From Candidatus Woesearchaeota archaeon (lineage in GTDB: Archaea; Nanobdellota; Nanobdellia; Pacearchaeales; GW2011-AR1): 35,043 nt of DNA. Within the stretch, counting starts at the first letter, position 1; each line of letters begins with the position of its first letter. Location of the stretch: positions 1 through 35,043 of the forward strand of contig CAZVXB010000001.1 of NCBI GenBank assembly GCA_964630965.1, in the 5' to 3' direction. The notes below the pieces were generated by a model, which was not told the origin of the DNA, did not search any database, and saw only the letters and a program-made list of their open reading frames with translations. The translations under genes were made by a program, and so were the position numbers. Below, piece after piece: positions 9,886 to 32,559 of this stretch.

Positions 9886-9919
9886 CAAGAATCATTTTAC
9901 AAAAAATGGGTGTAAAAGA

Positions 9920-10528: not shown

Positions 10529-10529
10529 C

Positions 10530-11375
10530 TTACGGGCTTCTAAGTCGAAGAGAAACCCAATACACATATCCTAAGAGTATCGACAAAAGTGTTGAACCAA
10601 TAAGCACCCACACGAGCAAGGTCGTGTGCAGTTTAAAGAAAGCGTCAGAAAGTGCCGGTATACCGAATATCGCTCCAATGGTTCCTGGAACCGAGACTAC
10701 GATGCTTGTAATAGTTAGGAACGTAGTAATCACCGTCAATCGTCGCATAGTCACGTTCAGTTCGCGATTTGACTTCATTTCGTATTTTGTTCGTAGAGAG
10801 GCAATACGATAAATATGGCTACGACAACGTTCGAGCCAATAGCGGGTCTCCCCGCTTAGAAGTTCATAATCAAACCCTATAAGTTCAACGTCAAAACTTT
10901 TCACACTTCGCTCTTTAAGAAGAATAATTAATTGTACAAGTTCTTCAAATCTATCGGTTAGTCTTCGCAAATCACGGCCAGATGTTTCTATATGGTCAAG
11001 AACAGGGTTCAAATCAAGATCGTTCATACGATTACGGATACGTTCAAACTCGTGCGAATAATTACGTAAGACTGATTTGAGGAAAGTGAATGCGAGAGCT
11101 GTGCTTTCTCCATAGGGTTTCTTCAATATAGTCTTGAATTCTCTTGTTCCTCGCTCAAAAGAACCATCGCTAAACGCAAGTGCATTTCTCTTTGAGAGTA
11201 CCACAATCGCTCTGCCCAAAGGGTTGTTGTAGAGGGGAACGCTAATGAGCGTGTAACTTGCCCGGTGATCAAACAAAGGAAAGTCGAGTTTACTAAGGGC
11301 ATCAATATCAATAACGAGTCGTAATTGTGCAACTCTTTGTTTGAAATTATCCAAGTTATTAAAAAATTCAATCAT
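10530..11375 (-). CDS. CorA-like divalent-cation channel homologue with atypical pore motif
   Basis: 281 aa. A soluble N-terminal domain is followed by a long helix and two C-terminal TMs. The TM1-loop sequence LTVITTFLTITSIVVSVPGTIGAIFGIPAL aligns with the CorA pattern ...IFLPLT...GI(Y/F)GMN, but reads GIP instead of GMN. Confidence 0.5.
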   Translation of the reverse strand: MIEFFNNLDNFKQRVAQLRLVIDIDALSKLDFPLFDHRASYTLISVPLYNNPLGRAIVVLSKRNALAFSDGSFERGTREFKTILKKPYGESTALAFTFLKSVLRNYSHEFERIRNRMNDLDLNPVLDHIETSGRDLRRLTDRFEELVQLIILLKERSVKSFDVELIGFDYELLSGETRYWLERCRSHIYRIASLRTKYEMKSNRELNVTMRRLTVITTFLTITSIVVSVPGTIGAIFGIPALSDAFFKLHTTLLVWVLIGSTLLSILLGYVYWVSLRLRSP

Positions 11376-15455: not shown

Positions 15456-16532
15456 ATGGTAAACGGATTAGATCAGAAAACAGGTCAAAATATCGTAGTG
15501 ACCGGGGGAGCAGGTTACCTTGGTTCAATACTTGTCCCTCAATTACTCGAAGAAGGCCATAAGGTGCACGTTATAGATACCTTCTACTTTGGGAAGAATA
15601 CTCTTTCTCCCCACCCCAACCTTACACTTACAGAGCTAGACGTAGCTCATCATGAAAATATTCCTCACTTATTCAAAGGAGTAGATGCCATTGTTCACCT
15701 TTCTGGTATGTCTAATGATCCTTCAGGTGACCTCGACCCTAATTTAACCATTCAAACTAACTTTCTTGCAACTATGTCTCTTGCTCGGAGAGCCAAAACA
15801 GAAGGAGTTAAGCGATTTGTTTTTATCTCTTCCTGCAGTGTTTACGGTGCAAGTGGAAGTAGCTTTCTCGATGAACAATCAGAAGTTGGTCCCGTCACAC
15901 TCTATGCCCTTTCAAAGCTTAATTGTGAAAGCCAATTAATACCTCTCGCGGATTCAAAATTTGTAGTTACCGTGTTACGATTTGCCACCCTCTTCGGCTA
16001 TTCTCCCCGTATGCGGTTCGACTTAGCAGTTAATGTAATGGCCAAGCGAGCGCTTGAAGGTAAGAGCATTCTTCTCTTCGGAGATGGTATGCAGTACCGC
16101 CCTTTCTTACACGTAAAAGATGCCTCCCGAGCAATAAGAACAGTTCTCAAGGAAGATCCAAGTATTACCAACAAACAAATATTCAATGTAGGTAATAGCA
16201 AACTTAATTTTATGATAAAAGACCTTGTTCCCCTCATTCAATCGTACTTTAAGGATTCAAAAATAGAGAGGGTCGAGAACAACAAAGACAATCGTTCTTA
16301 CAGGGTAAGCTTCAAGAAATTTGAAAGAATTTGCAACTTCCAAGCAGAGAACGGAATTGAAGATGGTCTGAAAGAAATTCAAGAAGCTTTCCAATCAGGA
16401 AAATTAAAGAATATGGATGATTATAACTATTACAACCTTGAAGTTATGAAAAGACTGATTAAAGAGCCCATTGTCGAATATAGTATCGCCTCGAGTCCGC
16501 GCTGGACGATTGTCTCGGGAGATTCTAATTAA
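15456..16532 (+). CDS. NAD-dependent sugar epimerase/dehydratase (extended SDR)
   Basis: TGGAGYLGS glycine motif, SSCSVYG, and catalytic YALSK. Confidence 0.8.
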   Translation: MVNGLDQKTGQNIVVTGGAGYLGSILVPQLLEEGHKVHVIDTFYFGKNTLSPHPNLTLTELDVAHHENIPHLFKGVDAIVHLSGMSNDPSGDLDPNLTIQTNFLATMSLARRAKTEGVKRFVFISSCSVYGASGSSFLDEQSEVGPVTLYALSKLNCESQLIPLADSKFVVTVLRFATLFGYSPRMRFDLAVNVMAKRALEGKSILLFGDGMQYRPFLHVKDASRAIRTVLKEDPSITNKQIFNVGNSKLNFMIKDLVPLIQSYFKDSKIERVENNKDNRSYRVSFKKFERICNFQAENGIEDGLKEIQEAFQSGKLKNMDDYNYYNLEVMKRLIKEPIVEYSIASSPRWTIVSGDSN

Positions 16533-16546
16533 GGTCTTAAAATAGA

Positions 16547-16555
16547 TTTATAAAA
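16547..16555 (+). promoter_or_regulatory. TATA-like box for the GT2/C-methyltransferase pair
   Basis: TTTATAAAA with its centre 27 nt upstream of the ATG at 16578. Confidence 0.5.
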
Positions 16556-16577
16556 CGCCCTATCCACGAGCACCCAT

Positions 16578-17330
16578 ATGCCAAAGAAACCAAAGGTAAT
16601 TGGGGTCATCCTTGCTTACAATGTAGCACGTATGTTGCCTCGTGCAATTGAACGTATTCCTCGAGGAGTCCTCGACGACCTGATTGTCATGGACGATGGA
16701 TCTAAGGATGGAACCTTCGAGGTTGCCAAAAAACTCGGCCTTAAGGTATTTCGACATGTCCCTAACCGAGGTTATGGAGGAAATCTTAAAGCAGGCCTCA
16801 AGAAAGCCTTAGAAATGGGTGCAGATTATATAGTAGAAATTCACGGAGACGGTGCCCAGTTTAATCCTATTTCTATTAAGTATGCAATGCCGTTCATGAA
16901 CGAAGGAGAGGCTCAATTAATTCTCGGTTCTCGGTTTAAGGAAAAAGGCAAGGCTCTAGAGAATGGCATGCCCCTCATTCGATTTGTAGCCAATCGTTTC
17001 CTCAGCTTCTTTGACCGGCTTGTGTTGGGTCTACCTCTAACAGAGTTCCATACGGGCTTCAGAATATACGGTCGAAAATTACTTGAAAAAGTGCCCTACG
17101 ATGCCAACATAAACGACTATTTGTTTAGCTTCCAAATTATAGCCCAAGCAGCCTATTACCGAATCCCTGTAAGAGAGGTGCCCGTAGAAGCAGATTATAA
17201 GGCAGAACACACCTCTCACTCTATCAAGGGGGCAAGCTGGTACGCTATACGTACCTTCGGCGTGCTTACACAATTTATCCTCGCCCGAATGGGAATTGCC
17301 CATACTAAAGTATTTAAAAGAACAAATTGA
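16578..17330 (+). CDS. GT2 glycosyltransferase, polyprenyl-phosphate sugar synthase-like (DPM1/AglD/ArnC type)
   Basis: VILAYNVARMLPRAIERIP...LIVMDDGSKDGT...HGDGAQ. It is a short (250 aa) GT-A enzyme with an amphipathic/hydrophobic C-terminus. Confidence 0.75.
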   Translation: MPKKPKVIGVILAYNVARMLPRAIERIPRGVLDDLIVMDDGSKDGTFEVAKKLGLKVFRHVPNRGYGGNLKAGLKKALEMGADYIVEIHGDGAQFNPISIKYAMPFMNEGEAQLILGSRFKEKGKALENGMPLIRFVANRFLSFFDRLVLGLPLTEFHTGFRIYGRKLLEKVPYDANINDYLFSFQIIAQAAYYRIPVREVPVEADYKAEHTSHSIKGASWYAIRTFGVLTQFILARMGIAHTKVFKRTN

Positions 17331-17339
17331 GCCCTTCCC

Positions 17340-18569
17340 ATGGAAGCATTACAATGCAAATCATGTGGCTTCGAAGGGCTTAATCGCTTTCTAGAGTTAG
17401 GTGCGATACCGCCTGTGAATGCATTTATATCTGAATCAGAAATACCTCATGAAAGGGCTTATTCTCTTAACTTAGCGTACTGCCCCCAATGTTTTCTGGT
17501 ACAATTGGAACAAATTGTTCCTCCTGAAGATTTGTTTAGGAATTATCTTCATCTTTCAGCAGGATCGCCAACAAATGTAAAGCACCTCGAAGAAGTAGCC
17601 GATTATTTAGGAAAAAAGTTTAATCTCAATTCAGAGAGTAAGATTTTAGAGATTGGTTCGAACGATGGTACACTTCCCGCATTCTTTAAGAAGTACACCC
17701 CTCATGTTGTGGGGGTCGACCCGGCACGAAATCTCGTTCAGACAAACAAGGAAAAAGGAATTGATTACATCCCCGAATTTTTCAATACATCAACTGCATC
17801 ACATATTCTCAAGACGCGAGGAACGTTCGATCTTATAGTCGGTTTAAACGTGATTCCTCACACGCCTAATAACATCGATTTACTCAAAGCCGCACGCATA
17901 ATTCTCAAAGATAAGGGCACGTTAGTAATGGAAGGGGTATATGCGCTGGAAACTATTCTTGATGGAGAGTTTGACACTATTTACCATGAACATGTGTATA
18001 CATTTTCCCTTCACGCTTTAATCTCAACGTTCAGAATGGCAGGTCTAACCGTGGTCGATGTAGAAAGAATTCCGACCCAAGGAGGATCATTACGAGTGTT
18101 TGCCATGAAGGATGAATATGCAGACTCTGTATCTTCTACCGTTTTTTCCCTTCTAGACCAAGAAAAGAAGCATGGTCTTGCCGATCCCCAAGCGTACGAT
18201 TCCGTTGGTCAAAAAGTTCTTTCGTATAAAAAAGAGCTCAGATCACTTATAGAGAAGGAAAAAAGTACGAAGGGAAAACTCGTCGGTTTAGGTGCGCCTG
18301 CTAGAGGGGTAGTCATAATGAACTATTGCAACATAAATACGGAAGACTTAGAATATGTTATTGACGACACACCGCTTAAAATTGGGAAAGTGACTCCAGG
18401 GACACACGTACCTGTTAAATCATGGGCGTCGCTCAAGGAAGACGAAGATAGGACGTATCTTCTACTCTCCTGGAACTACAAGGACCATCTACTCTCAAAG
18501 TTAAAGCAACACGTAAAGAAAGGGACAGTCATAATTCCATTTCCTAAATTAGAAGTTATTTCTTTTTGA
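17340..18569 (+). CDS. NDP-hexose C-methyltransferase-like enzyme (Zn-ribbon + class I SAM MTase + C-terminal C-MT domain)
   Basis: N-terminal CKSC...CPQC zinc ribbon, SAM motif ILEIGSNDG, YHEHVYTFS, and GGSLRV. This matches the architecture of the TylC3/NovU-type sugar C-methyltransferase family. Confidence 0.7.
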   Translation: MEALQCKSCGFEGLNRFLELGAIPPVNAFISESEIPHERAYSLNLAYCPQCFLVQLEQIVPPEDLFRNYLHLSAGSPTNVKHLEEVADYLGKKFNLNSESKILEIGSNDGTLPAFFKKYTPHVVGVDPARNLVQTNKEKGIDYIPEFFNTSTASHILKTRGTFDLIVGLNVIPHTPNNIDLLKAARIILKDKGTLVMEGVYALETILDGEFDTIYHEHVYTFSLHALISTFRMAGLTVVDVERIPTQGGSLRVFAMKDEYADSVSSTVFSLLDQEKKHGLADPQAYDSVGQKVLSYKKELRSLIEKEKSTKGKLVGLGAPARGVVIMNYCNINTEDLEYVIDDTPLKIGKVTPGTHVPVKSWASLKEDEDRTYLLLSWNYKDHLLSKLKQHVKKGTVIIPFPKLEVISF

Positions 18570-20381
18570 AAAGAGAAGGTAAATCGGAACAGTAAGAGAA
18601 ATCACTGCGAGAATAATCAGCAAATATAGGGTGCCATAGGCAAGAACATTAAGAAGGGAGTTAAAAGTACCTTTAACTTCATAATGGTCAAATGCCCCAG
18701 CAGGATCTGCATTTCGAGGAATTCTATAGAAGAAATGAGTATGACTTTGATCAACGGCAAGAAGTAACGAAGGGTCAAGAGGAATAATTGTTTCATAGAT
18801 TTTAAAATAGGGTTCTCCCGATCGTTCAGCACCACGCACACCAGGTATAGATCCTCCGCCTGTCAGTAAAGTCGTCTTTTTTGAAACATTTTGAAAAGCC
18901 TCAACTATTTTTTCAACAGACTCGTTAAACTCGGGTTGATCCTTGACAGTCCCCCATCCACAATCATCATCCACACATTCAACAAACAAAGTCCTTATTG
19001 GAACTTGTTGACGTGATTTCTCAGAAGCATCTATGAGTTGAGAAAGGTAATTAGACTCCACATAATGTTTATCATAGAACATCCAGACGTTAGTTCCCCG
19101 ATATGTTCGAGCATCAACGACTACTAGTGCGTTCGAGTCAATAGAATCGATTGCAAAGGCTCGTGCCTTTTCAACTCCGCTTTGTGAGGTAAGCGGACCC
19201 CAGAGCGAATAAATACTAAAGCAAAAGAGTATGATTAAAATGCCTGCCAAGGCATACTTTTTCTGAATTAAAGGACTTAATCGGTTACTTCCAGCAATAA
19301 TAACTCCTCCGGCGAAAATAGAAAAGAGAGGGAAAAAGGAAGTATAATGCGTCTGAAGTACTATCGCTGAGGCTATAAATACCAAAGAGAAAAAGAACAT
19401 CGAAACAAGGAAAAGTTCTCCAAATCTTTTTTGTTTAAATCTGCTTAGGATATATCCTATTCCGGCTAAACCCAGTAAAAAGGTGGTTATATCTTCCCTA
19501 ATAAAATACATCCTAAAAACGCTATAGAGGTTTTGAGGAAGCTTGTCAAGTACAAATCCTTCTCCATGAGCCAAGCCAGGACCCATATAGAACTCGGTAT
19601 TTATTTTGAGAAACTGTGCAAATGGTAAATCGACAATACCTTTCTCACTATAAAGAAAATAGTTGTAAGAAAATAAAGGAATAAGACAAAGAGCAATAAT
19701 AACTCCAAACCAAACTGTTCTCTTTAGGTTACGCTTGAATAATTTTTTATCGCTCTTATAATTAGTATAGAGTATTCCCAAGATGAATACACCAAAGACT
19801 ATAATGAAAACCCCTGTTATTATCTTAACAAGCATAGCCATGCCTAGTGCCAAGGCAGCGAAAAGAGATATGTATTTTTTTTCTTCATACGTTCGAATGA
19901 ATAAATATGATGCAAGAAGGACAAAAAACATCATAGTCTGATCTTGATAGGCGGCAGCCCAGGTAATATGGAAAGTAGAAAGTGCTAAAACGAGGGAGGC
20001 CAACAATCCAGCCTCCCTATTAAAGAGTTTACTCGCAATAAGATAAACCAAAATGATTGAGAAAGACCCAAAAATAACCGATAAAAATCGGGCAGTAAGA
20101 AGATGTACCCCAAAAATCCGGTAAGCATAGTCAGTAAGATAAAACCACACGGGTCCCTGAGTCATGGTGCTAAGAGGGGCAAGCTTTGATACTCCGAGTG
20201 CATGAACTCCATGTACCATCTCATCCGCAACCGGGGGGATGTTAGAAGCAACAATTATTCTCAAGATAACTCCCAAGATAACAATGGCAAGAAGCCATTT
20301 ACGGGAATCGTTAGAAAAGACAAAATTAATCGATTTATCCAAAAAAGAATCTAACCCATTTTTATCGCTCTGATTATCCAC
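18549..20381 (-). CDS. GT-C fold glycosyltransferase (GT39/ArnT/PMT-like), polytopic membrane protein
   Basis: 610 aa with about 11 or more hydrophobic segments. The first loop carries the acidic motif PPVADEMVHG. A soluble C-terminal domain is followed by a final TM. The start codon is GTG; there is no in-frame ATG before TM1. Confidence 0.65.
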   Translation of the reverse strand: MDNQSDKNGLDSFLDKSINFVFSNDSRKWLLAIVILGVILRIIVASNIPPVADEMVHGVHALGVSKLAPLSTMTQGPVWFYLTDYAYRIFGVHLLTARFLSVIFGSFSIILVYLIASKLFNREAGLLASLVLALSTFHITWAAAYQDQTMMFFVLLASYLFIRTYEEKKYISLFAALALGMAMLVKIITGVFIIVFGVFILGILYTNYKSDKKLFKRNLKRTVWFGVIIALCLIPLFSYNYFLYSEKGIVDLPFAQFLKINTEFYMGPGLAHGEGFVLDKLPQNLYSVFRMYFIREDITTFLLGLAGIGYILSRFKQKRFGELFLVSMFFFSLVFIASAIVLQTHYTSFFPLFSIFAGGVIIAGSNRLSPLIQKKYALAGILIILFCFSIYSLWGPLTSQSGVEKARAFAIDSIDSNALVVVDARTYRGTNVWMFYDKHYVESNYLSQLIDASEKSRQQVPIRTLFVECVDDDCGWGTVKDQPEFNESVEKIVEAFQNVSKKTTLLTGGGSIPGVRGAERSGEPYFKIYETIIPLDPSLLLAVDQSHTHFFYRIPRNADPAGAFDHYEVKGTFNSLLNVLAYGTLYLLIILAVISLTVPIYLLFSKRNNF

Positions 20382-20401
20382 GAGACATTAAGATAGGCTC
20401 A

Positions 20402-20410
20402 TTTTATAAA
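20402..20410 (-). promoter_or_regulatory. TATA-like box for the GT-C gene
   Basis: The minus strand reads TTTATAAAA. Its centre is 25 nt from the GTG start at 20381. Confidence 0.45.
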
Positions 20411-20443
20411 CGTTCTTTGAGCAATTAGGGCAATAGCATAAGG

Positions 20444-20450
20444 TTTAAAT
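20444..20450 (+). promoter_or_regulatory. TATA-like box for gmd
   Basis: TTTAAAT with its centre 26 nt upstream of the ATG at 20473. It overlaps the alternative ATG at 20449. Confidence 0.45.
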
Positions 20451-20472
20451 GGGTCGAGTTTTGTTAGCCACT

Positions 20473-21573
20473 ATGGAACGAAGAAAGGTTGCTCTTATAA
20501 CTGGAATAACCGGGCAAGATGGATCTTACCTAGCAGAGTTTTTGCTCAAAAAAGGGTATGCTGTGCGGGGAATTATGCGAAGATCCTCTAATCTCAATAC
20601 GAATCGCATAGATCACCTGTACAAAGAGTATAACCCTGACATGGTTCAGGATGCTGAGACTCCCTTCGTTCTTTATTTTGCAGATTTAACTGATGCTTCA
20701 AGTTTACGTTCTATTCTAGAATTGGTAAAGCCTGATGAAATTTACAATCTTGGGGCCCAAAGTCATGTAGGTATCAGCTTCAATAATCCTCTTTCTACGT
20801 TTGATATCAACGCGCTCGGAACATTACGGCTTCTAGATGCCATTAGAGATATGAAACTTCCCTGTAAGTTTTATCAAGCCTCCTCTTCCGAAATGTTTGG
20901 AGCATCTCCTCCACCCCAGAACGAAAAAACCCCCTTTCAGCCCCAAAGCCCCTATGGAGTATCGAAAGTTGCGGCCTTTCATTTAGTAAAAGTATATAGG
21001 AGCGCCTATAATTTGTTTGCTTCTAACGGAATACTATTCAATCACGAATCTCCTCGCAGAGGACATAATTTTGTAACCCGAAAGATAACCAAAGAGCTAG
21101 CAAGAATCGTAGTTGGAGAAACGAATAAAATAAAGCTAGGTAACCTTGACGCAAAGAGGGATTGGGGATTCTCCAAAGAATATGTGGAGGCTATGTGGCA
21201 CATACTTCAACATTCGCAACCCGATGATTTCGTTATTGCAACTAACGAAACACACACAGTAAGAGACTTCTTAAGAGAAGCGTTTGCACTTGTAGGCTTG
21301 AACTACGAAGACTACGTTGTCAATGACGATAGATTCAAACGACCTGCGGAGGTCCCAGCCCTATTAGGAGACTATTCAAAAGCAAAAAATATACTCAAAT
21401 GGGATACAAAGATTAAATTCAAAGAGCTTGTAGAAATGATGGTTGAGGCAGACATTAAAGAAAAGTTGGAATCTGAAGGAATTGTCCCTATCTCCAATGG
21501 GGTCCCTAAACCAAAAGGGTATTACTTAGAACGGGCTAAAGAATTACTCAGTCAAAAGAAATCTGTTAATTAA
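20473..21573 (+). CDS. gmd: GDP-mannose 4,6-dehydratase
   Basis: KVALITGITGQDGSYLAEFLLKKGY.V.GI.RRSS..NT.RIDHLY, SSSEMFG, YGVSK, NHESPRRG. I prefer the start at 20473 (MERRKVALITG). The earlier ATG at 20449 lies inside the TATA-like box. Confidence 0.92.
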   Translation: MERRKVALITGITGQDGSYLAEFLLKKGYAVRGIMRRSSNLNTNRIDHLYKEYNPDMVQDAETPFVLYFADLTDASSLRSILELVKPDEIYNLGAQSHVGISFNNPLSTFDINALGTLRLLDAIRDMKLPCKFYQASSSEMFGASPPPQNEKTPFQPQSPYGVSKVAAFHLVKVYRSAYNLFASNGILFNHESPRRGHNFVTRKITKELARIVVGETNKIKLGNLDAKRDWGFSKEYVEAMWHILQHSQPDDFVIATNETHTVRDFLREAFALVGLNYEDYVVNDDRFKRPAEVPALLGDYSKAKNILKWDTKIKFKELVEMMVEADIKEKLESEGIVPISNGVPKPKGYYLERAKELLSQKKSVN

Positions 21574-21991
21574 TTGCTTTCTTATCTTTCTCAGGCCCAT
21601 AATACGGTCCATTCTTGAATTCAAACAGGTGGGCAGGAGTGAGCGTTTTCATGCTATGTCCTCCATTCACAATCATATAAAAATCCCCTTCATGGAGCAC
21701 GTGTTTCTCCACAAAACTATTGTCGATATCGTAGATAGAAAGTTCTATTGATCCTTTAAAAACAAGTAGTCCTTCATGCGTCTGATAGGTATGGCGTTCG
21801 TGAGAATTATGGGTGTGGGGCTTGACTTGCGTTTGAGCAGGCACATTAAGAAACATGGCTTGTAAACATTGATCTGGTTCGCTAATTTCTTCACGCTTCA
21901 CGTTAGAAAAATCATCGAGCGATGTTTCTTTCTTAAAGATTATGTGGAGAAGAATAGAGGGGTCGATTCTTGAGTAAATTTTATGGATCAT
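21566..21991 (-). CDS. small cupin-fold protein (possible sugar ketoisomerase/epimerase)
   Basis: 141 aa. Cupin motif 1 is PHTHNSHERHTYQTHEGLLVFKG and motif 2 is GDFYMIVNGGHSM. Its start overlaps the stop of the upstream C-methyltransferase by 11 nt. Confidence 0.5.
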   Translation of the reverse strand: MIHKIYSRIDPSILLHIIFKKETSLDDFSNVKREEISEPDQCLQAMFLNVPAQTQVKPHTHNSHERHTYQTHEGLLVFKGSIELSIYDIDNSFVEKHVLHEGDFYMIVNGGHSMKTLTPAHLFEFKNGPYYGPEKDKKAIN

Positions 21992-23213
21992 TTTTAAATT
22001 GCTCTGGAGAGATAAATTCTATACTTTGATTGAACTTAGATAATATCTCTTTAAGTTGCGGGGCAATATTCCAAGACAAAATAAGCGCATACACTTTTCC
22101 ATAATTAGAAAATATTTCATCTCCAACAATAGGAATACGGGTTGCTGGAGTATACTTTCCTTTTTTATGAGGAGAGGAGTCGGTAACGTAATCAATAACG
22201 CTATGATCTAACTTATAAAAATTGAGAAATGTATTCCCTTTAGCAGCAGCACCTACTGCAATTATGGGGTGTCCTTCTTCTTTAATACGATGAACTCGTT
22301 GTAAGAATTTGCTTCGTTGCAAAAGATTATTCCTCATAAATCTCTTATAGGTCTCCAATGAAAAGATACCTTGTTCTTCTTCTTTATCGATCATAGCTTG
22401 CACTGCAGGAGGTAGCGCGCTCGTTTCTTTCTTTTTCTGAGCAATAACACGCAAAGAGCCACCATGATAGTCAACAACTTGTGCAGACGCAATAATCAAT
22501 CCAGCATGACTGAGGAGAGCCGCGGCAGATTTAACGGTAAAATAACTTACATGTTCATGGTAAATCTGGTCGAATTTTCCACTTTCAACTCCAATAGGCC
22601 AGTACGGTTGTTCAAATACAAAACTACCCGTGTCTGAAAGAATATCCGCAACGGCCTTTGTAAATTCACGAGGATTATCTGAATGGTTGTAAACGTTACT
22701 TGCCGTTACAAGGTCGACCTTTCCATAATTCTCGTTAATGCGCTGAGCAACATCTTTCCCAAAAAGCCCAGTAATAGTACTCACACCTCGTTTCTTAGCG
22801 AGCTCAGCCATATAGGGAGAGGCATCAACACCTATGGTTCGATACCCTGTTCTATTGAATTGCTCACAAAGATATCCATCATTCGAACCTATATCTACAA
22901 TCAGAGCGTTAGGCTTAAGACTAACTGCCTTTCCGATTTCAACAACATAGGAATCCCAATGATTGCGGGCAAACGCAGAATTTGAGGAAGTATAGGAATA
23001 ATCAACTTGAGAATATCGCTTCTGGGGGTCAGTCTCGTAACGTGTTTGTACATGTCCACACACCATACATAAGTCACATACCAAAGGATAGACGCTGTCT
23101 CCCTCTCCAACATACGCTTCAGGGACAAATGTATCCGCAAACGGGTGGCTCCCTAGGTCAATTATTTCATTCAATTCCTTTGAATCACATACAAGGCAAT
23201 TCGTACGACTCAT
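21981..23213 (-). CDS. NDP-hexose C-methyltransferase-like enzyme, second paralogue
   Basis: CLVC...CMVC zinc ribbon, IVDIGSNDG, YHEHVSYFT, and GGSLRV. The architecture matches 17340..18569, but the sequence is strongly diverged. Confidence 0.7.
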   Translation of the reverse strand: MSRTNCLVCDSKELNEIIDLGSHPFADTFVPEAYVGEGDSVYPLVCDLCMVCGHVQTRYETDPQKRYSQVDYSYTSSNSAFARNHWDSYVVEIGKAVSLKPNALIVDIGSNDGYLCEQFNRTGYRTIGVDASPYMAELAKKRGVSTITGLFGKDVAQRINENYGKVDLVTASNVYNHSDNPREFTKAVADILSDTGSFVFEQPYWPIGVESGKFDQIYHEHVSYFTVKSAAALLSHAGLIIASAQVVDYHGGSLRVIAQKKKETSALPPAVQAMIDKEEEQGIFSLETYKRFMRNNLLQRSKFLQRVHRIKEEGHPIIAVGAAAKGNTFLNFYKLDHSVIDYVTDSSPHKKGKYTPATRIPIVGDEIFSNYGKVYALILSWNIAPQLKEILSKFNQSIEFISPEQFKNDP

Positions 23214-23275
23214 ACTAATATCGTCTAAAAGGAGGCATTTATAAGTTTATCCAGTAGCGGAACAAATCTTTTTAA

Positions 23276-24982
23276 ATGGGTTGCGGTTGCAACGATCCTA
23301 TGAAAAAGATTGACAAGAAGATGCTTCTTGCAGCATGGTCTATTAACAATGTTAATTGGATCATCAATCAAGCCTATAATCTCCCTCTAAGGGATATTTT
23401 TACAACCGTAGTAAATTTCGATCCCCAGGAAGAAATTTATAAATATGGAAAAAAGAAAATGAATCAAAGGTTTTTAGAAATATTAAAAAAAGAAAAGCCA
23501 GATTATATCCATCTCTTTTTAGTATGGGATGAGTTTTATCCTGAAACTCTAATAAAAATAAAAGAAATTCTCCCCAGTGTCAAGGTTACTCACTGGAACG
23601 GAGATGATGACATAAAATTCGAGAACTATACTTTGCCGTATGCAACAACAATAGACTATCAATTCATAAGTCAACTTCAATTTGCAAAGCGTTACAATGC
23701 TGCCGGAATACCTTGGTTTGATATGTTGGGGGCAGATATTGAAAAGTTTAGGCCCCTAAAAGTTAAGAAAAAATATGAGGTTGCATTTGTAGGGACGCCA
23801 AAGGGTGATCGTCTAAAATATATGCGTTTTCTTCTAAAAAAAGGCGTTAACTTCGTGCTCGCAGGAGCAGGATGGAATGATTATCCGGAGTTTAAAGAAC
23901 ATTATATTGGAAAATTAGGGGACGAAGAATTCGTTAAACTCATTAACGAAACGAAGATTAATTTGTGTTTTTCACAAAACTTTTTTGCCTCCCCTCACGT
24001 ATTGGAAAGGTCACTTGCAGTAAATGCCTGCAAATCCTTCGCGTTAACAGAATATGTCGAAGGATATTTTCCGAAATTCAAAGAAGGGTTTGATTTTGCC
24101 AGTTTTAAAACAGAAGAAGAGTTATATGAAAAAATAAATTATTACTTAAAGAAAGAAGAAGAAAGAGAGAAAATAGCTGAAAGGGCATACAAAACCGTAA
24201 CAAAGAATTTTTCAAACCAAAAAATGATGCGTGATGCCTATAAGGCAATAGAAAAAGACAAAGGCCCCCTTTATAGTCTAACTACAAGAAAGTATTTAGA
24301 AGAAAGTCCGGTTTACCTAGACAAGAAAGATTTTAAGAAAGGGGCAGACCACATAAAAAATAAGATTGTCAACTCGAAATATATTGGATTTAGAAACGTA
24401 TATCATGAACCTCTTCCTTACAAAGATTACTACCAAACGTACACTTTAGATATGACAAAAAAACCACTTTCTATATGTGATTCTTATCTAAATTCATTAT
24501 TAATAGGGGACTATGCTTCTTTATCATTGTATTACGCTTATAATTATCTCAAAGATCAGAACTATGTTTATGATAATATAGATATTTCTCAAATCATGGT
24601 TGAGAAAAAATATTTTCTTGAACATCTTAATCTATTTGCAGGAATGTATCAAAATAAAAAGTTTAAGATAAACCCTGAAGAAGTTTCTTTTTTAAGTATT
24701 CCTCTTGTTCGAACAAAGAAAGTAACGAAAATACCTATAATAAATTCAGACCACATTCTATTTACTTACCTTGATTTGAATTTGGTCGTTTTAAGAAACC
24801 AAAAGAGGTTATTCAGAGACCCTTACATTTACAAGCTTATTTTTTATTCTATCTTTGTTAATCCTCAAATAGCAAAACATCTTCTTGTAAATATCTTAAA
24901 ACGTAGTAAAAACCCTTATGCCCTTAAGGTTTCTAATTTCTTTGGCAAGTTCTTTAAGCCTGCACAATTGAAGAATTGTTAG
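23276..24982 (+). CDS. CgeB-like glycosyltransferase (DUF3880 + Glyco_trans_1_2-like) with a ~235-aa C-terminal extension of unknown function
   Basis: The central region YEVAFVGTPKGDRLKYMRFLLKKGVNFVLAGAGW...INLCFSQN...ERSLAVNACKSFALTEY...FKTEEELYEKINYYLKKEEEREKIAERAYKTV resembles the CgeB/spore-maturation-type GT family. An alternative start at 23300 (MKKIDKK) fits the promoter spacing better. Confidence 0.55.
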   Translation: MGCGCNDPMKKIDKKMLLAAWSINNVNWIINQAYNLPLRDIFTTVVNFDPQEEIYKYGKKKMNQRFLEILKKEKPDYIHLFLVWDEFYPETLIKIKEILPSVKVTHWNGDDDIKFENYTLPYATTIDYQFISQLQFAKRYNAAGIPWFDMLGADIEKFRPLKVKKKYEVAFVGTPKGDRLKYMRFLLKKGVNFVLAGAGWNDYPEFKEHYIGKLGDEEFVKLINETKINLCFSQNFFASPHVLERSLAVNACKSFALTEYVEGYFPKFKEGFDFASFKTEEELYEKINYYLKKEEEREKIAERAYKTVTKNFSNQKMMRDAYKAIEKDKGPLYSLTTRKYLEESPVYLDKKDFKKGADHIKNKIVNSKYIGFRNVYHEPLPYKDYYQTYTLDMTKKPLSICDSYLNSLLIGDYASLSLYYAYNYLKDQNYVYDNIDISQIMVEKKYFLEHLNLFAGMYQNKKFKINPEEVSFLSIPLVRTKKVTKIPIINSDHILFTYLDLNLVVLRNQKRLFRDPYIYKLIFYSIFVNPQIAKHLLVNILKRSKNPYALKVSNFFGKFFKPAQLKNC

Positions 24983-25694
24983 AAATTTTTCTCCAAAGTG
25001 AAACATCAAGGGACGAATCTGCTGCTCTTTTTGTTGGAGAAATTTTATTTATTTCTTCAAGAGTTTTTGCTTTTATACTAGGCTTATATTTTTTCAAAAT
25101 AGTATAGAGGCTCGCACGATCACATCCCACATTAAGGGTTCCTATAAACGAGCTTCCAATAATATTTTCTATGGCCCTGGCCAATTCAGAAACAGGTATT
25201 TTCGAGCAAAAGCCGTCAATTGCAGCACTTTCATAAGGGATATTTAGGGGGTCAAAGAAGCTTGTTCGTACTACGCAGTGGTTTGGAGTTAGATGTGCGG
25301 CACATTCTCCTCCAAGTTTTGTCCAAGCATAAGTATTAACAGGTATAACTGCATCCCGTTCACTATAAGGCCCTTTAGTGCAAGGATAGACGTAATCTGT
25401 TGAGATGTAAACGAATCGCGTTCCTGGATTTATTGCCTGTACAACATGGGCGGTTCCGATTACGTTTACGTTAAATGCCTCGACAGGATTCTTCTCACAT
25501 TCGACCATATTAACCAGGGCTGCACAATGAACGACTGCTCCAATCGAGTGTTTTTTAATGAATAAACTAACTGATTCTTTATTCGTTATATCCATTTCTT
25601 GCCTAGTAGGTGCAATGCATCTACTACCTAATAGACTTACAAGTGCTTGACCAAGTTTACCTGTTCCCCCGGTAATTAAGACTTTATCCTTCAT
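24954..25694 (-). CDS. short SDR, RmlD-like NDP-4-ketosugar reductase
   Basis: MKDKVLITGGTGKLGQAL, STDYVY, and catalytic YAWTK. At 246 aa it is shorter than typical RmlD. Confidence 0.6.
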   Translation of the reverse strand: MKDKVLITGGTGKLGQALVSLLGSRCIAPTRQEMDITNKESVSLFIKKHSIGAVVHCAALVNMVECEKNPVEAFNVNVIGTAHVVQAINPGTRFVYISTDYVYPCTKGPYSERDAVIPVNTYAWTKLGGECAAHLTPNHCVVRTSFFDPLNIPYESAAIDGFCSKIPVSELARAIENIIGSSFIGTLNVGCDRASLYTILKKYKPSIKAKTLEEINKISPTKRAADSSLDVSLWRKISNNSSIVQA

Positions 25695-25725
25695 ATTTTT
25701 TTACCATTTAATAGGATTAAATACG

Positions 25726-27282
25726 TTACGATTGTTCTATTTTTTGAAAGGGCATGCTCTTTAGCTGAAACACCTTCGTTCGAATATCCTTTATGATTTC
25801 CCAGTCGTTCTCATCAAACGATTTTGTCGCAAGGAGCAAAACGGAGTAAATACTTCCAAAAATAATGCCTCCTGCAATAAGGGTTCCAAGTGTTTGCCCT
25901 CCGATAGTTGCAATTCCCAAGGTGAGTAAGAAAGGGGCAATTCCAACCAAGGTTATTTTGATAATCGACCGTTTGAGGGGATAAAAACCATATTTTTTCT
26001 TAATCTCAAAAAAGAGAACAAGGCAGAAACCTATCCACGATAGTGTTGTCGCACTAGCAATTCCAACCATCCCATACCGAATAAATAAAAGTCCAAGAAC
26101 GACGTTAAATATGGAGAAGAAGATAAAATTGTATAAAATAAGCTTTGTTTCCTTTTTAGCAGAGAGCAAATTAGTAAACGTATTGAGAAAACCAGAGAAA
26201 AGCCCTCCTAATGCAAGAACCCTAAGGGTATTTTCTGCGCCCCTAAACTCTGCTCCAAAGAGTAAATCAAGCAATATACCTGGAAATATAAATAACAATG
26301 CAAAAACGGGGATATTAATTGTATAAATCCATTTAGTTATCTGTTTAGTAATGGTTCGAATAACTTCTCTGTTGTTTCTCGACAGTTCCTTTGAAACAAC
26401 AGGCAAGAAAAGTTGGCTAAATAAATCAGGAGCCATAACGAAAAGACCGACCAAAGTTATTGCGGCATTATACAAGCCAACAATATTTGAATCAGTAAAG
26501 TAGCCTAAAATCAAAGAATCTGTCCAATAAAACATACTAAGAAGAAGACCTACAAATGCAAGAGGCCAGGAATAGGCAAATAGTTCTCCAAAAAGTTTCT
26601 TTCTTTCTTTCGCAATCAAATGCTGAGCTCTTCTAACAATTGCAAAACGGTCATGAGAAAAATAAAGGGCGACAATAATAAGAGCAACATAAGAAAGAAC
26701 GTACGAATAGAACAGTGATGAAAGCCCAAGTCCAAGCACGATAAACCCTCCGATTAGGGCAAGACGTACCGTATTTTGGAAAGTCCCCACTAAAAAAGAA
26801 GCAGTTTTCGCACGCTCATATGAACGTAATGCTGCGATGAATACATTGGCAATAAGGGAGAGAGGTACAACGAGGCTAAATGCACGAAGAAAGAAGGCGA
26901 GCTCCTCGTTTCCAAAGAAGTTTATGGCAATTATATCTGCAAGTAGGAAAAGAACAATTCCCCCGCAAATTCCAGAAAAGAGCGCAACACGTGAGGCTAG
27001 GGAGAGAATATACTTTATCCGAACATTGTCTTTCCTTCCGATGTAATACGAGATATATCTCACGATTCCATCAGAAAAACCAAGAGAGGCAAAAGCAACA
27101 AAGAAACCGGTTATAATTATTGCAAGAGAGAAGTTTCCATAGGTGCTTGTTCCAAAATTCCGAGCTATTATTATCTTATAACCATACGTCAGAACTTTAG
27201 AAAGTACAAGACTAAGGAAAACAAAAAAAGAAGTTTTAGCAAAGGTGTTTAGGTATTCGTTAGATGTGGTCCTTTCTTTCAT
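25726..27282 (-). CDS. Wzx-like oligosaccharide flippase (MOP/polysaccharide biosynthesis protein family)
   Basis: About 14 predicted TMs throughout, a composition and length typical of Wzx/RfbX. The track start at 27303 is TTG. The ATG at 27282 (MKERTTSNEYL) is 25-26 nt from the TATA-like box. Confidence 0.7.
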   Translation of the reverse strand: MKERTTSNEYLNTFAKTSFFVFLSLVLSKVLTYGYKIIIARNFGTSTYGNFSLAIIITGFFVAFASLGFSDGIVRYISYYIGRKDNVRIKYILSLASRVALFSGICGGIVLFLLADIIAINFFGNEELAFFLRAFSLVVPLSLIANVFIAALRSYERAKTASFLVGTFQNTVRLALIGGFIVLGLGLSSLFYSYVLSYVALIIVALYFSHDRFAIVRRAQHLIAKERKKLFGELFAYSWPLAFVGLLLSMFYWTDSLILGYFTDSNIVGLYNAAITLVGLFVMAPDLFSQLFLPVVSKELSRNNREVIRTITKQITKWIYTINIPVFALLFIFPGILLDLLFGAEFRGAENTLRVLALGGLFSGFLNTFTNLLSAKKETKLILYNFIFFSIFNVVLGLLFIRYGMVGIASATTLSWIGFCLVLFFEIKKKYGFYPLKRSIIKITLVGIAPFLLTLGIATIGGQTLGTLIAGGIIFGSIYSVLLLATKSFDENDWEIIKDIRTKVFQLKSMPFQKIEQS

Positions 27283-27303
27283 ACTCTTCTCTAGCAAGAA
27301 CAA

Positions 27304-27311
27304 TTTAAAAA
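27304..27311. promoter_or_regulatory. shared or bidirectional TATA-like box between the flippase (minus) and methyltransferase (plus) genes
   Basis: TTTAAAAA centred at 27307.5, which is 25.5 nt from the ATG at 27282 (minus) and 25.5 nt from the ATG at 27333 (plus). Confidence 0.5.
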
Positions 27312-27332
27312 CAATCCGGGCGTTATCTCCAT

Positions 27333-28058
27333 ATGGCCAGAAATAGAGTAACGGGTCGCAATACCAAAATTCAGGCCCTTATCGATTTATTCCCCAAATC
27401 ATTTCGACTTCAATTAAATCCTCGACGCCATGCCATTGAAACTTTCGTTAAAAATTCTTCTAAGAAAATAGCGCCAAATTCAAGAGTTTTAGACGCAGGA
27501 GCCGGACCCTGCCCCTATCGGTCTTTCTTCAAACACACACATTATGAAGCTACTGATGTTGTTGATCCCTATAGCATTCTCGATTTTACTTGTAGTCTCG
27601 ATCGTGTCCCTCGCAAAGATAACACTTATGATGCTTTACTTTCAACGGAAGTTCTAGAACACGTGGAATTTCCCCAAAAAGTCATAAACGAATCGTACAG
27701 AATTCTAAAAAAGGGCGGAAAGCTCTTCCTCACTACTCCTCAAGGATGGATGATTCACCAAGCCCCATACAATTACTTTTATTTTACAAAATACGGTTTA
27801 GAAAGTTTACTCAAACAAGCAGGATTCAAAAAGTATAAAATAACCCCCATGGGGGGATATTTCAAGTTTCTTGCTGACGCCCTAAGGTTCAATAGCGTTG
27901 TAGAACAGTGGAGACATATAAAAATAGTTTACTTCCCCCTCGCCTTTCTCGACACCGTATTTCTCAAGATAATTGTTTCATTTATTCTTTTTCATCTTGA
28001 TTTCATAGATAAAAGAAAAGTGTGGACTATGGGCTATACTGTTGAAGCAATTAAGTAG
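27333..28058 (+). CDS. class I SAM-dependent methyltransferase
   Basis: Motif I VLDAGAGPCPY, then DALLSTEVLEHV and KGGKLFLT. The C-terminal segment is hydrophobic. Confidence 0.7.
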   Translation: MARNRVTGRNTKIQALIDLFPKSFRLQLNPRRHAIETFVKNSSKKIAPNSRVLDAGAGPCPYRSFFKHTHYEATDVVDPYSILDFTCSLDRVPRKDNTYDALLSTEVLEHVEFPQKVINESYRILKKGGKLFLTTPQGWMIHQAPYNYFYFTKYGLESLLKQAGFKKYKITPMGGYFKFLADALRFNSVVEQWRHIKIVYFPLAFLDTVFLKIIVSFILFHLDFIDKRKVWTMGYTVEAIK

Positions 28059-29021
28059 TTAATCAGGAATAGTCCATCTGCCCCTTTTTATATCTTTTAG
28101 GTTAAAAATACAGTATGATAAAGATGAGAAATAAAGAGTTGCCTTTAGCCAGTTTCTCTTGTTTGGTCTAAAAAGGAGGAGAGATAGGCGAAGCAAACTT
28201 ATTCCTAGAAGAGACCAAACAAATATGCTTTTCTCTTTAAAGTTTCTATTGAAGTTTTTATAATGTAAATAAAAATGATGTATCTGGTTCATATAGGTTA
28301 TTTTTCGAGCAGGATAACGTTCTATCTGAGATGCTCTGTGAATAAGACGTGCCCTTGGGGTAAGGAAAAGAGAAAGGGGTTTTCTCATGTTAACTCTATA
28401 AGTGAAATCAAAATCTTCGCCCAATGAATATCTACTTAAATGTTCATCAAAAATATCTTTCTTAAAGACTTCTTTTTTGAAAGCCATATTGAAACCGGGG
28501 ATCCACTCAACGTTTATTGTTTTGTTCAATCGAGAAGGGTATATCGCTCCGTAAGAAGAAAGAACACGCCCGGAATTAGGTGCACGATGCTCGATGAAGA
28601 AGAATTTTCTAATGAATGTGCTTATTTTAGAATTTTTCAACCCTCTCGGAAGATAATATCCTCCAACTCCATAAGCAAGAGCGTTCTCATTGAATACTCT
28701 AAGGATTTCTTTAAAGTAATTAGTATCGAGCGTTACATCGTCATCAAGGAAAATAACTATTTTACAAGAACGGTTAATTTGAGAAATTCCTAAATTACGT
28801 GCGACAGTAAGCGAAGGTTTATCTGAAAAAATATACTTTATTTTTTTATCTCTCAAACTTTTAATTAGGTCTTTTGTTTTATGGTCTGTGCTCTGATCAA
28901 CCACAATAACCTCTTGTAAATCCTTAATTTTATTTTTGAACGATACAAGGGTTTCTCTGAGATCCTGAGAACGATTGTACGTAGGGATTATTACAGAGAC
29001 GTCGGCAAGAGAATAATTCAT
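28059..29021 (-). CDS. GT2 glycosyltransferase
   Basis: VSVIIPTYNRSQDL...VVDQSTD...IVIFLDDDV (DxD), with a hydrophobic C-terminal tail. Confidence 0.8.
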   Translation of the reverse strand: MNYSLADVSVIIPTYNRSQDLRETLVSFKNKIKDLQEVIVVDQSTDHKTKDLIKSLRDKKIKYIFSDKPSLTVARNLGISQINRSCKIVIFLDDDVTLDTNYFKEILRVFNENALAYGVGGYYLPRGLKNSKISTFIRKFFFIEHRAPNSGRVLSSYGAIYPSRLNKTINVEWIPGFNMAFKKEVFKKDIFDEHLSRYSLGEDFDFTYRVNMRKPLSLFLTPRARLIHRASQIERYPARKITYMNQIHHFYLHYKNFNRNFKEKSIFVWSLLGISLLRLSLLLFRPNKRNWLKATLYFSSLSYCIFNLKDIKRGRWTIPD

Positions 29022-29536
29022 TTTACTGTCTCCAACTCAAAATAAAGTGAATTAGCCGGGATAAGAAATGAGAAGAAAAAATAATATAGCTTCTGAATTT
29101 TCTCATGAGAATTAACGATCATAGTAAGAAACCGAAGAAAGGGGTGAAAAACTATCTTTCTCTTTACGATGTTAAAACGAGCTTTAGAGTAATAGTTAAG
29201 ACCATCCGTTGGTCTGAAATAATTAAAGGTTAGATAGGTATAAACTGATTTATGGGTAGGGTCCGTAAATGCCCAGATACTTGGGTAAATGGGGACTTTA
29301 ATGACAGTTTTTGACCCTTTCTTTGAAATTCTCCAAATCTCTTCCACAGGGCGTATAATGCTTGAAAGGTGTTCAAGAACATTATCGCAATAAATTTCGT
29401 CAAATGAATTATCCTTAAAGGGCCAAGGATAGTTATCTAAATTGAAGACCTTATCGACTCCTTGGAGTTTAACAGAATCTACATTAAAATACCCCTTTCG
29501 TATATCTTTCCCACAGCCAAGGTTTAATCGTTTCAT
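29018..29536 (-). CDS. small SAM-dependent methyltransferase (Methyltransf_11-like)
   Basis: MKRLNLGCGKDIRKGYFNVD...FDEIYCDNVLEHL. Its stop has a 4-nt overlap with the downstream GT2 start. Confidence 0.6.
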   Translation of the reverse strand: MKRLNLGCGKDIRKGYFNVDSVKLQGVDKVFNLDNYPWPFKDNSFDEIYCDNVLEHLSSIIRPVEEIWRISKKGSKTVIKVPIYPSIWAFTDPTHKSVYTYLTFNYFRPTDGLNYYSKARFNIVKRKIVFHPFLRFLTMIVNSHEKIQKLYYFFFSFLIPANSLYFELETVK

Positions 29537-29548
29537 AGGTTGGATGAG

Positions 29549-30352: not shown

Positions 30353-30382
30353 AGGTAAAAACCAAGAAAACAATTAATAAAC

Positions 30383-31318: not shown

Positions 31319-31324
31319 CAGGGT

Positions 31325-32530: not shown

Positions 32531-32550
32531 AAATGGGAGCCCATCCGACG

Positions 32551-32559
32551 TTTTAAATA
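32551..32559 (-). promoter_or_regulatory. TATA-like box for the five-gene minus-strand sugar operon (32530 down to 28059)
   Basis: The minus strand reads TATTTAAAA. Its centre is 25 nt from the ATG at 32530. Downstream genes are separated by 6, then 9 (track starts; 30 with my revised GT2 start at 30352), then 12 nt, and finally a 4-nt overlap. Confidence 0.5.

Follow-up and report, generated by a model that had tools for sequence, protein, structure and literature searches.

Two putative sugar C-methyltransferases in separable gene modules of a Pacearchaeota surface-glycan island

Actinomycete antibiotics are the main known source of sugars with a C-methyl branch; a few bacterial O-antigens contain them too (virenose, evalose and 3-C-methylmannose). 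A single family of methyltransferases (MTs) includes both C3-methyltransferases such as TylC3 and C5-methyltransferases such as NovU; NovU, CloU and CouU are the 5-C-MTs that act on the deoxythymidine diphosphate (dTDP)-linked 4-keto-6-deoxyhexose of noviose synthesis, with NovW as their cupin epimerase partner. More generally, known routes to C-methyl sugars include a cupin epimerase (TylK, EryBVII, EvaD or NovW) as the partner of the MT. Here we analyze a stretch of 35,043 nucleotides (positions 1 to 35,043 of contig CAZVXB010000001.1, assembly GCA_964630965.1, from a Candidatus Woesearchaeota archaeon), hereafter the window, which carries two genes of this family, MT1 and MT2 (Table 1). The encoded proteins share with the 3-C-MTs TylC3, EryBIII, AviG1, EvaC, TcaB9, KijD1 and MtmC the same three domains, the Zn(Cys)4 ribbon, the S-adenosylmethionine (SAM) fold and the Tyr/His/Y-x-E-H site, but they are only 28-34% identical to characterized enzymes and fall into separate clades. 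Whereas the known 3-C-MTs work on dTDP-2,6-dideoxy or 3-amino sugars of actinomycete antibiotics, the two genes described here lie in an archaeal protein-glycosylation island, where MT2 is accompanied by Gmd, an enzyme of guanosine diphosphate (GDP)-sugar synthesis, and MT1 by a putative non-dehydratase short-chain dehydrogenase/reductase (SDR) and a putative lipid-carrier glycosyltransferase of family 2 (GT2).

The neighborhoods of MT1 and MT2, which we call module A and module B, respectively, recall different described systems. In three-component systems of extracytoplasmic glycosylation (ArnC/ArnT, GtrB/GtrC, PpgS/Rv3779 and Dol-P-Man synthase/PMT), a GT2 is paired with a membrane glycosyltransferase of the GT-C fold, as it is in module A, and, as with ArnA/ArnB, the sugar of module A would be tailored before it is loaded onto the lipid. 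The tailoring in module A, however, would be a C-methylation, its MT is fused to the GT2 in bacteria, and its GT2 scores below the family cut-offs. To our knowledge, no three-component system with a C-methyltransferase has been characterized. In Campylobacter jejuni, the tailoring of GDP-heptose starts with the C4-dehydrogenase Cj1427, which makes GDP-4-keto-heptose, and continues with cupin C3/C5 epimerases and C4-reductases (PMC10680097). This route is like the one that we propose for module A in that the 4-keto sugar nucleotide arises through an SDR that does not dehydrate its substrate. The stereochemistry is settled afterwards by small cupins and individual reductases, and, unlike module A, the GDP-heptose pathways involve no C-methyltransferase. 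For Coxiella burnetii, a route to GDP-virenose (6-deoxy-3-C-methyl-gulose) has been proposed that combines Gmd, the TylCIII-like protein CBU_0691 and an epimerase/reductase (PMC3539893, PMC3204966). Its logic is that of module B, with Gmd feeding a TylC3-family MT and with epimerization and 4-reduction following, but it is an in-silico model with a GMER-type SDR, whereas module B has a WbuC-like cupin and a short RmlD-like SDR in an archaeal host.

We consider it probable, though by no means certain, that MT1 and MT2 are two functional C-methyltransferases that belong to two separable, horizontally shared modules of an AglB-linked glycan island. With SAM as the donor, each would methylate a carbon adjacent to the 4-keto group of a sugar nucleotide. 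The island spans positions 15456-35043 of the window and holds, besides the two modules, several GT2s and SDRs, small methyltransferases, a flippase of the Wzx type and a histidine-variant DegT enzyme; an open-ended AglB/STT3 gene terminates it at the window edge.

Judged by sequence, MT1 and MT2 belong to the nucleoside diphosphate (NDP)-4-ketosugar C-methyltransferase family on every testable criterion. All three Pfam domains score above their cut-offs in both proteins, namely the Zn-binding domain PF08421 (60.2 bits in MT1 and 51.4 bits in MT2; cut-off 31.3), the class I SAM core PF13489 (58.7 and 61.2 bits; cut-off 27) and the C-terminal C-methyltransferase domain PF08484 (135.8 and 127.6 bits; cut-off 23.5). 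MT1 and MT2 carry the only copies of PF08484 in the source genome (G000), and no specific NCBIfam model matches either of them. The best solved match of both is MtmC (4rv9), which aligns end to end with MT1 (E 5.5e-75, 34% identity) and with MT2 (E 7.2e-62, 30% identity); TcaB9 (3ndi) and KijD1 (5t64 and 5t6b) likewise align end to end with both (E 1e-49 to 1e-55). The original prediction, made from the letters of the window, had assigned the two proteins to a TylC3-type architecture on the basis of the motifs CxxC...CxxC, I.(E/D)IGSNDG, YHEHV and GGSLRV. These motifs are present, the second as ILEIGSNDG/IVDIGSNDG and the third within IYHEHV, and the Pfam domains, the end-to-end matches and the conserved catalytic residues bear the assignment out.

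At the level of single residues, the four cysteines of the zinc ribbon (C6, C9, C48 and C51 in MT1; C6, C9, C49 and C52 in MT2) are aligned with those of TcaB9, KijD1 and MtmC, and the SAM motifs of the two proteins have EIGSNTG and EIGCNDG as their counterparts in the solved enzymes. The catalytic residues in the five-way alignment are Y69, N170, H174, Y215, E217 and H218 in MT1 and Y72, N173, H177, Y218, E220 and H221 in MT2, so that the Tyr and His of Y-x-E-H and the Asn and His of the N-x-x-x-H stretch are conserved in both, along with the zinc cysteines. Comparison of the TcaB9 mutant entries with the wild type locates a Tyr to Phe change in 4e31 and a Glu to Gln change within IYDEH in 4e2y, and both of these residues are kept in MT1 and MT2. 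It is improbable, in our view, that either protein, or both, has an in vivo role other than C-methylation, acting instead as an O- or N-methyltransferase or mainly as a 4-ketoreductase or scaffold in the manner of MtmC. Such a role would agree with the distance of both clades from the characterized enzymes, with the absence from the window of a reductase found in relatives (SDR-B, see below), and with the best solved match, as MtmC is reportedly bifunctional, with methyltransferase and ketoreductase activities. However, both proteins keep the SAM motif, the zinc site and every residue that was probed in TcaB9, within an architecture whose three domains are all retained, and fusions to Gmd and to cupins, described below, fit the chemistry of 4-keto sugars.

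MT1 and MT2 are old paralogues. They are 27-28% identical over ~400 residues (E 3e-56), which is no higher than the identity of either to MtmC. In a tree of 134 sequences, in which the characterized enzymes are MtmC, TcaB9 and KijD1 only (C3 enzymes, with sequences taken from the PDB alignments), MT1 and MT2 fall into separate clades, each with 100% support in the SH-like approximate likelihood ratio test (SH-aLRT) and each with bacterial members. The duplication is not recent, as had been predicted. The solved C3-methyltransferases form a third clade, and other copies from Pacearchaeales form further groups. The closest non-archaeal homologues, which are ~45-57% identical, come from Planctomycetes, Peregrinibacteria, Andersenbacteria, Bdellovibrionales and Polyangiaceae, and it is this diversity of bacterial sources that points to horizontal sharing. 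The inverted (convergent) orientation of the two genes, to which the original prediction drew attention, is real yet incidental, since relatives have the two genes on one strand or arranged differently. A meaning of the convergent arrangement in terms of an inverted repeat or recombination was also considered and ruled out: the only inverted DNA match between MT1 and MT2 is 33 nucleotides (nt) long and encodes the shared motif FDxIYHEHV, and the orientation varies among relatives.

The two modules can be found apart in relatives, which are referred to here by G and L labels. G004 has MT2, the cupin and gmd without MT1, that is, module B without module A. Conversely, in G050 the genes for GT-C, SDR-A, GT2, MT1 and SDR-B are collinear on one strand, in a genome with neither gmd nor a second MT, and in G006 the two modules lie on different contigs. 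This separability supports the view that the two enzymes have different substrates, one of the options named in the original prediction, and argues against sequential double methylation. In the sequential scheme MT1 and MT2 would serve one pathway, methylating the same Gmd product one after the other (for example at C3 and at C5) to give a doubly C-methylated sugar. It would explain why both MTs flank gmd in the window, G005, G007, L014 and L017, and it would be in keeping with the fact that C3- and C5-methyltransferases share a family. We nevertheless regard it as quite unlikely, given the three genomes above and given that bacterial proteins in which GT2 and MT1 are fused have their own SDR-A, with no gmd within 8-10 kb.

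The coupling of genes in module B is tight. The 11-nt overlap that had been predicted between MT2 and the cupin gene is present: the last codons of MT2 are ...CCA TAA, with the stop at 21983-21981, and the cupin gene starts with an ATG at 21991-21989. This start codon is the real one, because Met1 and the N-terminus MIxKIYSK are conserved in 30 homologues. At the corresponding junctions in relatives, the genes overlap by 7 nt (G005 and G004) or are separated by a 1-nt gap (L014), and in G031 they stand in reverse order with a 1-nt gap. The co-occurrence of cupin, MT and gmd was surveyed in 61 genomes of relatives. Seven of them have the cupin, and all seven carry a gene with PF08484 on the same contig, in five cases directly adjacent (one-sided Fisher p = 4e-5, rising to 1.6e-4 when the window's own genome is left out; here and below, the tests treat genomes as independent and ignore shared ancestry). 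Single proteins that combine an MT with a cupin also occur. P0124 joins a protein 75% identical to MT2 to a WbuC-like C-terminal domain homologous to the window's cupin, P0156, which is found on 16 contigs, joins an MT2-clade protein to a different cupin, and P0233 joins one to a third cupin type. Adjacency and fusions together uphold the earlier proposal that MT2 and the cupin are a functional pair.

The association extends to gmd, which is a bona fide GDP-mannose 4,6-dehydratase equivalog by TIGR01472. It lies no more than ~2 kb from the MT2/cupin pair in all seven cupin-bearing genomes, and it is present in 11 of 17 MT-bearing relatives versus 4 of the 44 others (Fisher p = 2.5e-5). Furthermore, G008 encodes a single 709-amino-acid (aa) open reading frame (ORF) in which an MT is fused to Gmd (L004 748-2877; G008:C8 ~141-143.5 kb), and a similar frame of ~700-746 aa is found in G034 (L019 17801-19900; G034:C20); in this subtype CHEH replaces YHEH. 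As direct Rosetta-stone evidence, these fusions indicate that MTs of the family in these archaea use the Gmd product, and gmd is the predicted supplier of a 4-keto-6-deoxy substrate to module B. The CgeB-like glycosyltransferase, which adjoins MT2 in L014, L017, L020, L022, L023, L026 and L027, is a candidate transferase of the module B sugar. Likewise, the short RmlD-like SDR, whose 245-247-aa orthologues lie beside the CgeB-like glycosyltransferase in relatives, is a candidate 4-ketoreductase. Module B probably makes a GDP-6-deoxy-C-methyl-hexose.

Other conserved genes accompany module B in relatives. A 126-aa protein follows the 246-aa SDR (L023 1372-1752; L014 714-1094); the place to compare in the window is 24954-24982, where it is missing. 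Where the WbuC-like cupin is missing (G001, G006 and L017), this protein accompanies MT2 or is fused to it, and in a comparison by eye it resembles the cupin domain of P0156. An ORF of 363-372 aa adjoins MT2 in G007 (L020 3388-4506, minus strand), G006 (L026 833-1924, plus strand) and G001 (L027 4863-5966, plus strand); the ORF list of the window has none of this size beside MT2, although no sequence search was made. The conserved neighbors of 363-372 aa, 160 aa and 126 aa have no match in Pfam or the PDB. In L017, a NUDIX hydrolase gene and a gene of the inositol-monophosphatase family (9457-10731) stand between the P0156 fusion and gmd, an arrangement that recalls the gmd-gmm (WcaH) pair of colanic acid clusters. 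The G008 ORF in which MT and Gmd are fused is immediately followed by a second gmd paralogue and by an NTP_transferase gene.

In module A, MT1 is coupled to the upstream GT2 gene just as tightly as MT2 is to the cupin, a link that the original prediction had missed. A gap of 9 nt separates the end of GT2 from the start of MT1, and orthologues of GT2 lie directly upstream of MT1-type genes in five of five genomes. In bacteria, the two occur in the same order as single proteins of 660-709 aa: P0074, P0069 (Peregrinibacteria), P0073, P0087 (Planctomycetes). This fusion of GT2 and C-methyltransferase would imply a lipid-linked donor of a branched sugar. The fusion loci (Peregrinibacteria, a contig resembling the candidate phyla radiation (CPR) and Planctomycetes) are flanked by SDR-A and by either a GT-C or a large protein. 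A PMT-type GT-C stands beside the Planctomycetes fusion, and the large protein of the other bacterial loci has a GT-C-like size and no Pfam match. SDR-A is also found directly upstream of GT2 and MT1 in G005, G007, G050 and L014.

The enzymes of module A are consistent with a route through a lipid carrier. The best solved relative of SDR-A is 6vo6 (E 1.3e-36), followed by 4-epimerases, uridine diphosphate-glucuronic acid (UDP-GlcA) decarboxylases and 4,6-dehydratases, and its SSCSVYG motif, as read from the sequence, lacks an Asp/Glu pair of the 4,6-dehydratase type; SDR-A is a candidate supplier of a 4-keto sugar nucleotide for MT1. GT2 has its best PDB match in the Pyrococcus Dol-P-Man synthase 5mlz (E 2.8e-4). 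GT-C, which matches the Agl23-like model TIGR03663 with 44 bits, below its cut-off, is likely the end user of the lipid-linked module A sugar. SDR-B, a full-length RmlD-type reductase (PF04321, 162 bits), follows MT1 in G005, G006, G050, L014, L017 and one bacterial locus. The probable role of module A is to attach a C-methyl hexose to a lipid phosphate, so that the sugar can be transferred outside the membrane.

We propose the following order of reactions. In module B, Gmd would form GDP-4-keto-6-deoxy-D-mannose, and MT2 would add a C-methyl group, with C3 as the default position by analogy. The WbuC-like metal cupin, whose gene is translationally coupled to MT2, would adjust the 4-keto intermediate in its stereochemistry or keto position, C4 would be reduced by the short RmlD-like SDR, and the CgeB-like glycosyltransferase would use the resulting GDP-6-deoxy-C-methyl-hexose for transfer. 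In module A, SDR-A would make an NDP-4-keto-hexose without 6-deoxygenation, MT1 would methylate it, and C4 would be re-reduced by SDR-B where the gene is present. The DPM1-like GT2 would then load the sugar onto polyprenyl (dolichyl) phosphate, and GT-C would transfer it on the outer face of the membrane. Because SDR-B is absent here, the reduction of C4 would fall to the bound NADH of SDR-A, to another SDR or to an MtmC-like activity of MT1.

Several points weigh against the explanation by two functional C-methyltransferases in two modules, and they concern the MTs, the cupin, the supply enzymes of module A and the gene content of the assembly. Neither MT clade nests within the clade of characterized C3-methyltransferases, the backbone of the tree is unresolved, and the tree contains no C5-methyltransferase (NovU). 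The independence of genomes that the Fisher tests assume is a further such point. In addition, P0124 is known from one 3.1-kb contig, and a 1-nt indel would be enough to fuse overlapping genes, for which reasons we give this protein less weight as Rosetta-stone evidence.

As for the cupin, its only family match is TIGR04366 (WbuC; E 4.8e-10), just under the cut-off of 42. WbuC proteins are similar in size to it (~135-140 aa), and ten sampled relatives match the WbuC model alone with 25-46 bits, scores that straddle the cut-off. Pfam gives a weak match to Cupin_2 only (16.8 bits), with none to its families of dTDP-sugar isomerases/epimerases, and the PDB sequences include no relative of the cupin, whether searched with the single sequence or with a profile. 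Among the WbuC papers listed by the search, titles and abstracts assign no activity to it and name it only as a neighbor of mcr-9. A profile search places the cupin in a family of 2489 representative clusters; H59, H61, E73, H112 and the motif EFKNGPY are invariant in 30 sequences. Longer proteins that contain the cupin, P0410 and P0309 among them, have additional regions without a significant match in Pfam. The AlphaFold 2 (AF2) model is all-beta, with a predicted local distance difference test (pLDDT) score of 86, and suggests a single cupin barrel with His/His/Glu/His as predicted metal ligands. Foldseek aligns the model with generic metallocupins at a template modeling (TM) score of ~0.6 (Ni-quercetinase, cysteine dioxygenase, the archaeal phosphomannose isomerases 7zvm/7zvy and KdgF), and the model is as similar to dioxygenases and phosphomannose isomerases as to anything else. 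None of the characterized enzymes of the RmlC/EvaD/FdtA type is among the best 50 matches, where the sole "RmlC-like" entry is 2q30, an unannotated structural-genomics cupin.

The original prediction had called MT2 and the cupin a pair of methyltransferase and isomerase/epimerase. While the pairing stands, the second label finds no RmlC/FdtA-type match in sequence or fold among the best hits and derives from pathway logic, as known routes pair the MT with a cupin epimerase. WbuC-type cupins may resemble the C-terminal cupin of CapF, a C3-epimerase. It is also conceivable, although we think it rather unlikely, that the cupin is no epimerase or isomerase at all, and is instead a metal-dependent oxygenase, a chaperone or stabilizer of an enolate, or a structural partner of MT2. 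The quercetinase and cysteine dioxygenase folds among its top matches, the invariant His/His/Glu/His site, the lack of RmlC/FdtA-type enzymes among the best 50 and the MT2 orthologues of G001 and G006, which have the 126-aa protein instead of the cupin, could all be understood in this way. Yet the top folds also include the archaeal cupin phosphomannose isomerases, and, as far as is known, the characterized routes to C-methyl sugars all pair the MT with a cupin epimerase. Moreover, the three cupin types fused to MT2-clade proteins argue for a generic cupin-type sugar reaction.

In module A, the best NCBIfam matches of GT2 all lie far below their cut-offs (PpgS 66, AglJ 43 and Dol-P-hexose transferase 41 bits). 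The assignment of SDR-A as a C4-dehydrogenase is tentative, with 6vo6, which we take to be Cj1427, modestly ahead of epimerases (130 versus 113 bits).

Gene content is the remaining point. SDR-B is absent from the window and from the whole G000 assembly, as is the 126-aa protein. Although the island would need GDP-mannose and SAM, searches of G000, which comprises 518 kb and is 84% complete, found neither a sugar-1-phosphate nucleotidyltransferase (PF00483) nor a SAM synthetase of the two types (PF01941, PF02773). In the 21 relatives surveyed for these functions, PF00483 is present in 15, sometimes adjoining gmd, and the bacterial-type SAM synthetase (MetK) in only four. The absence of both could reflect the missing 16% of the genome or a reliance on host-supplied GDP-mannose and SAM, and the pathways may depend on a host or be partly eroded.

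A more far-reaching version of this thought is that the island is eroding, with modules that are partly decayed or host-dependent here and with idle MTs. The missing nucleotidyltransferase and SAM synthetase would fit such a course, as would the loss of two parts that close relatives have, SDR-B and the 126-aa second cupin, and the state of G007, in which SDR-B is reduced to a 28-aa remnant. We attach little probability to it, however: the nine module ORFs are all uninterrupted and of full length, the catalytic residues are conserved, and near-identical orthologues exist for both MT1 (96% identity) and MT2 (88%). The incompleteness of the assembly also speaks against taking missing genes as decay, and SDR-B seems to be an optional part of the module, since it is absent beside two of the three bacterial fusions of GT2 and MT1 as well. 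For the same reason, its absence is not a firm sign of a broken pathway. In G005, which is otherwise collinear with the window, SDR-B lies between MT1 and GT-C (L022 5145-5966), at the place where MT1 and GT-C overlap by 21 nt in the window (18549-18569); the loss of SDR-B recurs in the genus. In G007, the GT2 orthologue upstream of MT1 (G007:C22:52694-53431) contains one in-frame TGA, which, together with the SDR-B remnant, suggests erosion of module A in that genome or a sequencing error.

The enzyme family itself is a well-known, textbook one, and the surprise to specialists would be moderate. If two functional C-methyltransferases are at work in this island, the novelty would lie in the predicted context: an archaeal AglB-linked island, a supply of GDP-sugars, a WbuC-like cupin in place of an RmlC-type epimerase, and a lipid-carrier module of GT2 and GT-C. 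In line with the original prediction, the searchable literature, including two reviews of archaeal N-glycosylation, yielded no account of archaeal glycans with a C-methyl-branched sugar, which is weak evidence given the partial coverage. The surface glycans of this Pacearchaeota (DPANN) archaeon probably contain methyl-branched sugars. It would be tempting to go further and to propose that DPANN archaea, together with the CPR, Planctomycetes and Bdellovibrio-like bacteria that share these genes with them, decorate their surface glycans with C-methyl sugars by two routes, one through GDP-6-deoxy sugars with a WbuC-like cupin as the dedicated partner of the MT, and one that is free of 4,6-dehydratase and proceeds through a lipid-linked non-deoxy C-methyl hexose by means of a C4-oxidizing SDR, an MT, a Dol-P-type GT2 fused or adjacent to it and a GT-C that transfers the sugar outside the membrane. 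We offer this wider idea as a tentative possibility, more doubtful than not. If true, the WbuC family would gain its first function, C-branched sugars would be described for the first time in archaeal glycans, and a lipid-phosphate donor of such a sugar would likewise be the first of its kind.

Should the modules work as we infer, ultra-small symbiotic archaea would devote ~2.5 kb of their ~0.6-Mb genome to the branching of surface sugars, which, in DPANN archaea, would bear on host recognition, on the evasion of phages and on cell-cell attachment. The conserved partners lead to testable hypotheses for the WbuC-type cupin family (~2,500 representative clusters) and for the fusion of GT2 and C-methyltransferase, and the enzymes would add new biocatalysts for branched sugars of the GDP-linked or non-deoxy kind.

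The ORFs of MT1, GT-C, gmd, the cupin and MT2 lie where the original prediction had placed them, and they are listed in Table 1 with the other genes of the two modules and two further genes of the island. Homologues of the window's genes carry Pacearchaeota or Nanoarchaeota labels.

Table 1. Coordinates of the genes of modules A and B and of two further island genes in the window
Feature	Position	Strand	Evidence and remarks
SDR-A, extended SDR, 358 aa, SSCSVYG...YALSK	15456..16532	+	PF01370 166 bits; first gene of module A
GT2, DPM1/PpgS/AglJ-like (resembling polyprenyl-phosphate sugar synthases), 250 aa	16578..17330	+	PF00535 64 bits
MT1, NDP-4-ketosugar C-methyltransferase family, 409 aa	17340..18569	+	Pfam, PDB alignment, tree
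GT-C-fold membrane glycosyltransferase, PMT_2/ArnT/Agl23-like, 610 aa	18549..20381	-	PF13231 63 bits
gmd, encoding GDP-mannose 4,6-dehydratase, 374 aa	20449..21573	+	TIGR01472 455.5 bits vs cut-off 415
WbuC-like metal-binding monocupin (predicted), 141 aa	21566..21991	-	TIGR04366 39.4 bits vs cut-off 42
MT2, NDP-4-ketosugar C-methyltransferase family, 410 aa	21981..23213	-	Pfam, PDB alignment, tree
CgeB-like glycosyltransferase, 568 aa	23276..24982	+	PF13524 75 bits; divergent neighbor of MT2
Short RmlD-like SDR, 246 aa	24954..25694	-	PF04321 117 bits, profile positions 2-150 of 287 only
Wzx/MOP flippase	25726-27303		
His-variant DegT enzyme	31325-32530		

With regard to the histidine-variant DegT enzyme of the island, action of a C-methyltransferase on a 3-deoxy-4-keto intermediate is conceivable. 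In G050, a thiamine pyrophosphate (TPP)-dependent enzyme (372 aa) and a class V aminotransferase (370 aa) are encoded beside the flippase of module A (L024 700-2969); this pair is typical of 2-aminoethylphosphonate synthesis and may indicate a phosphonate decoration of glycans in that genome.

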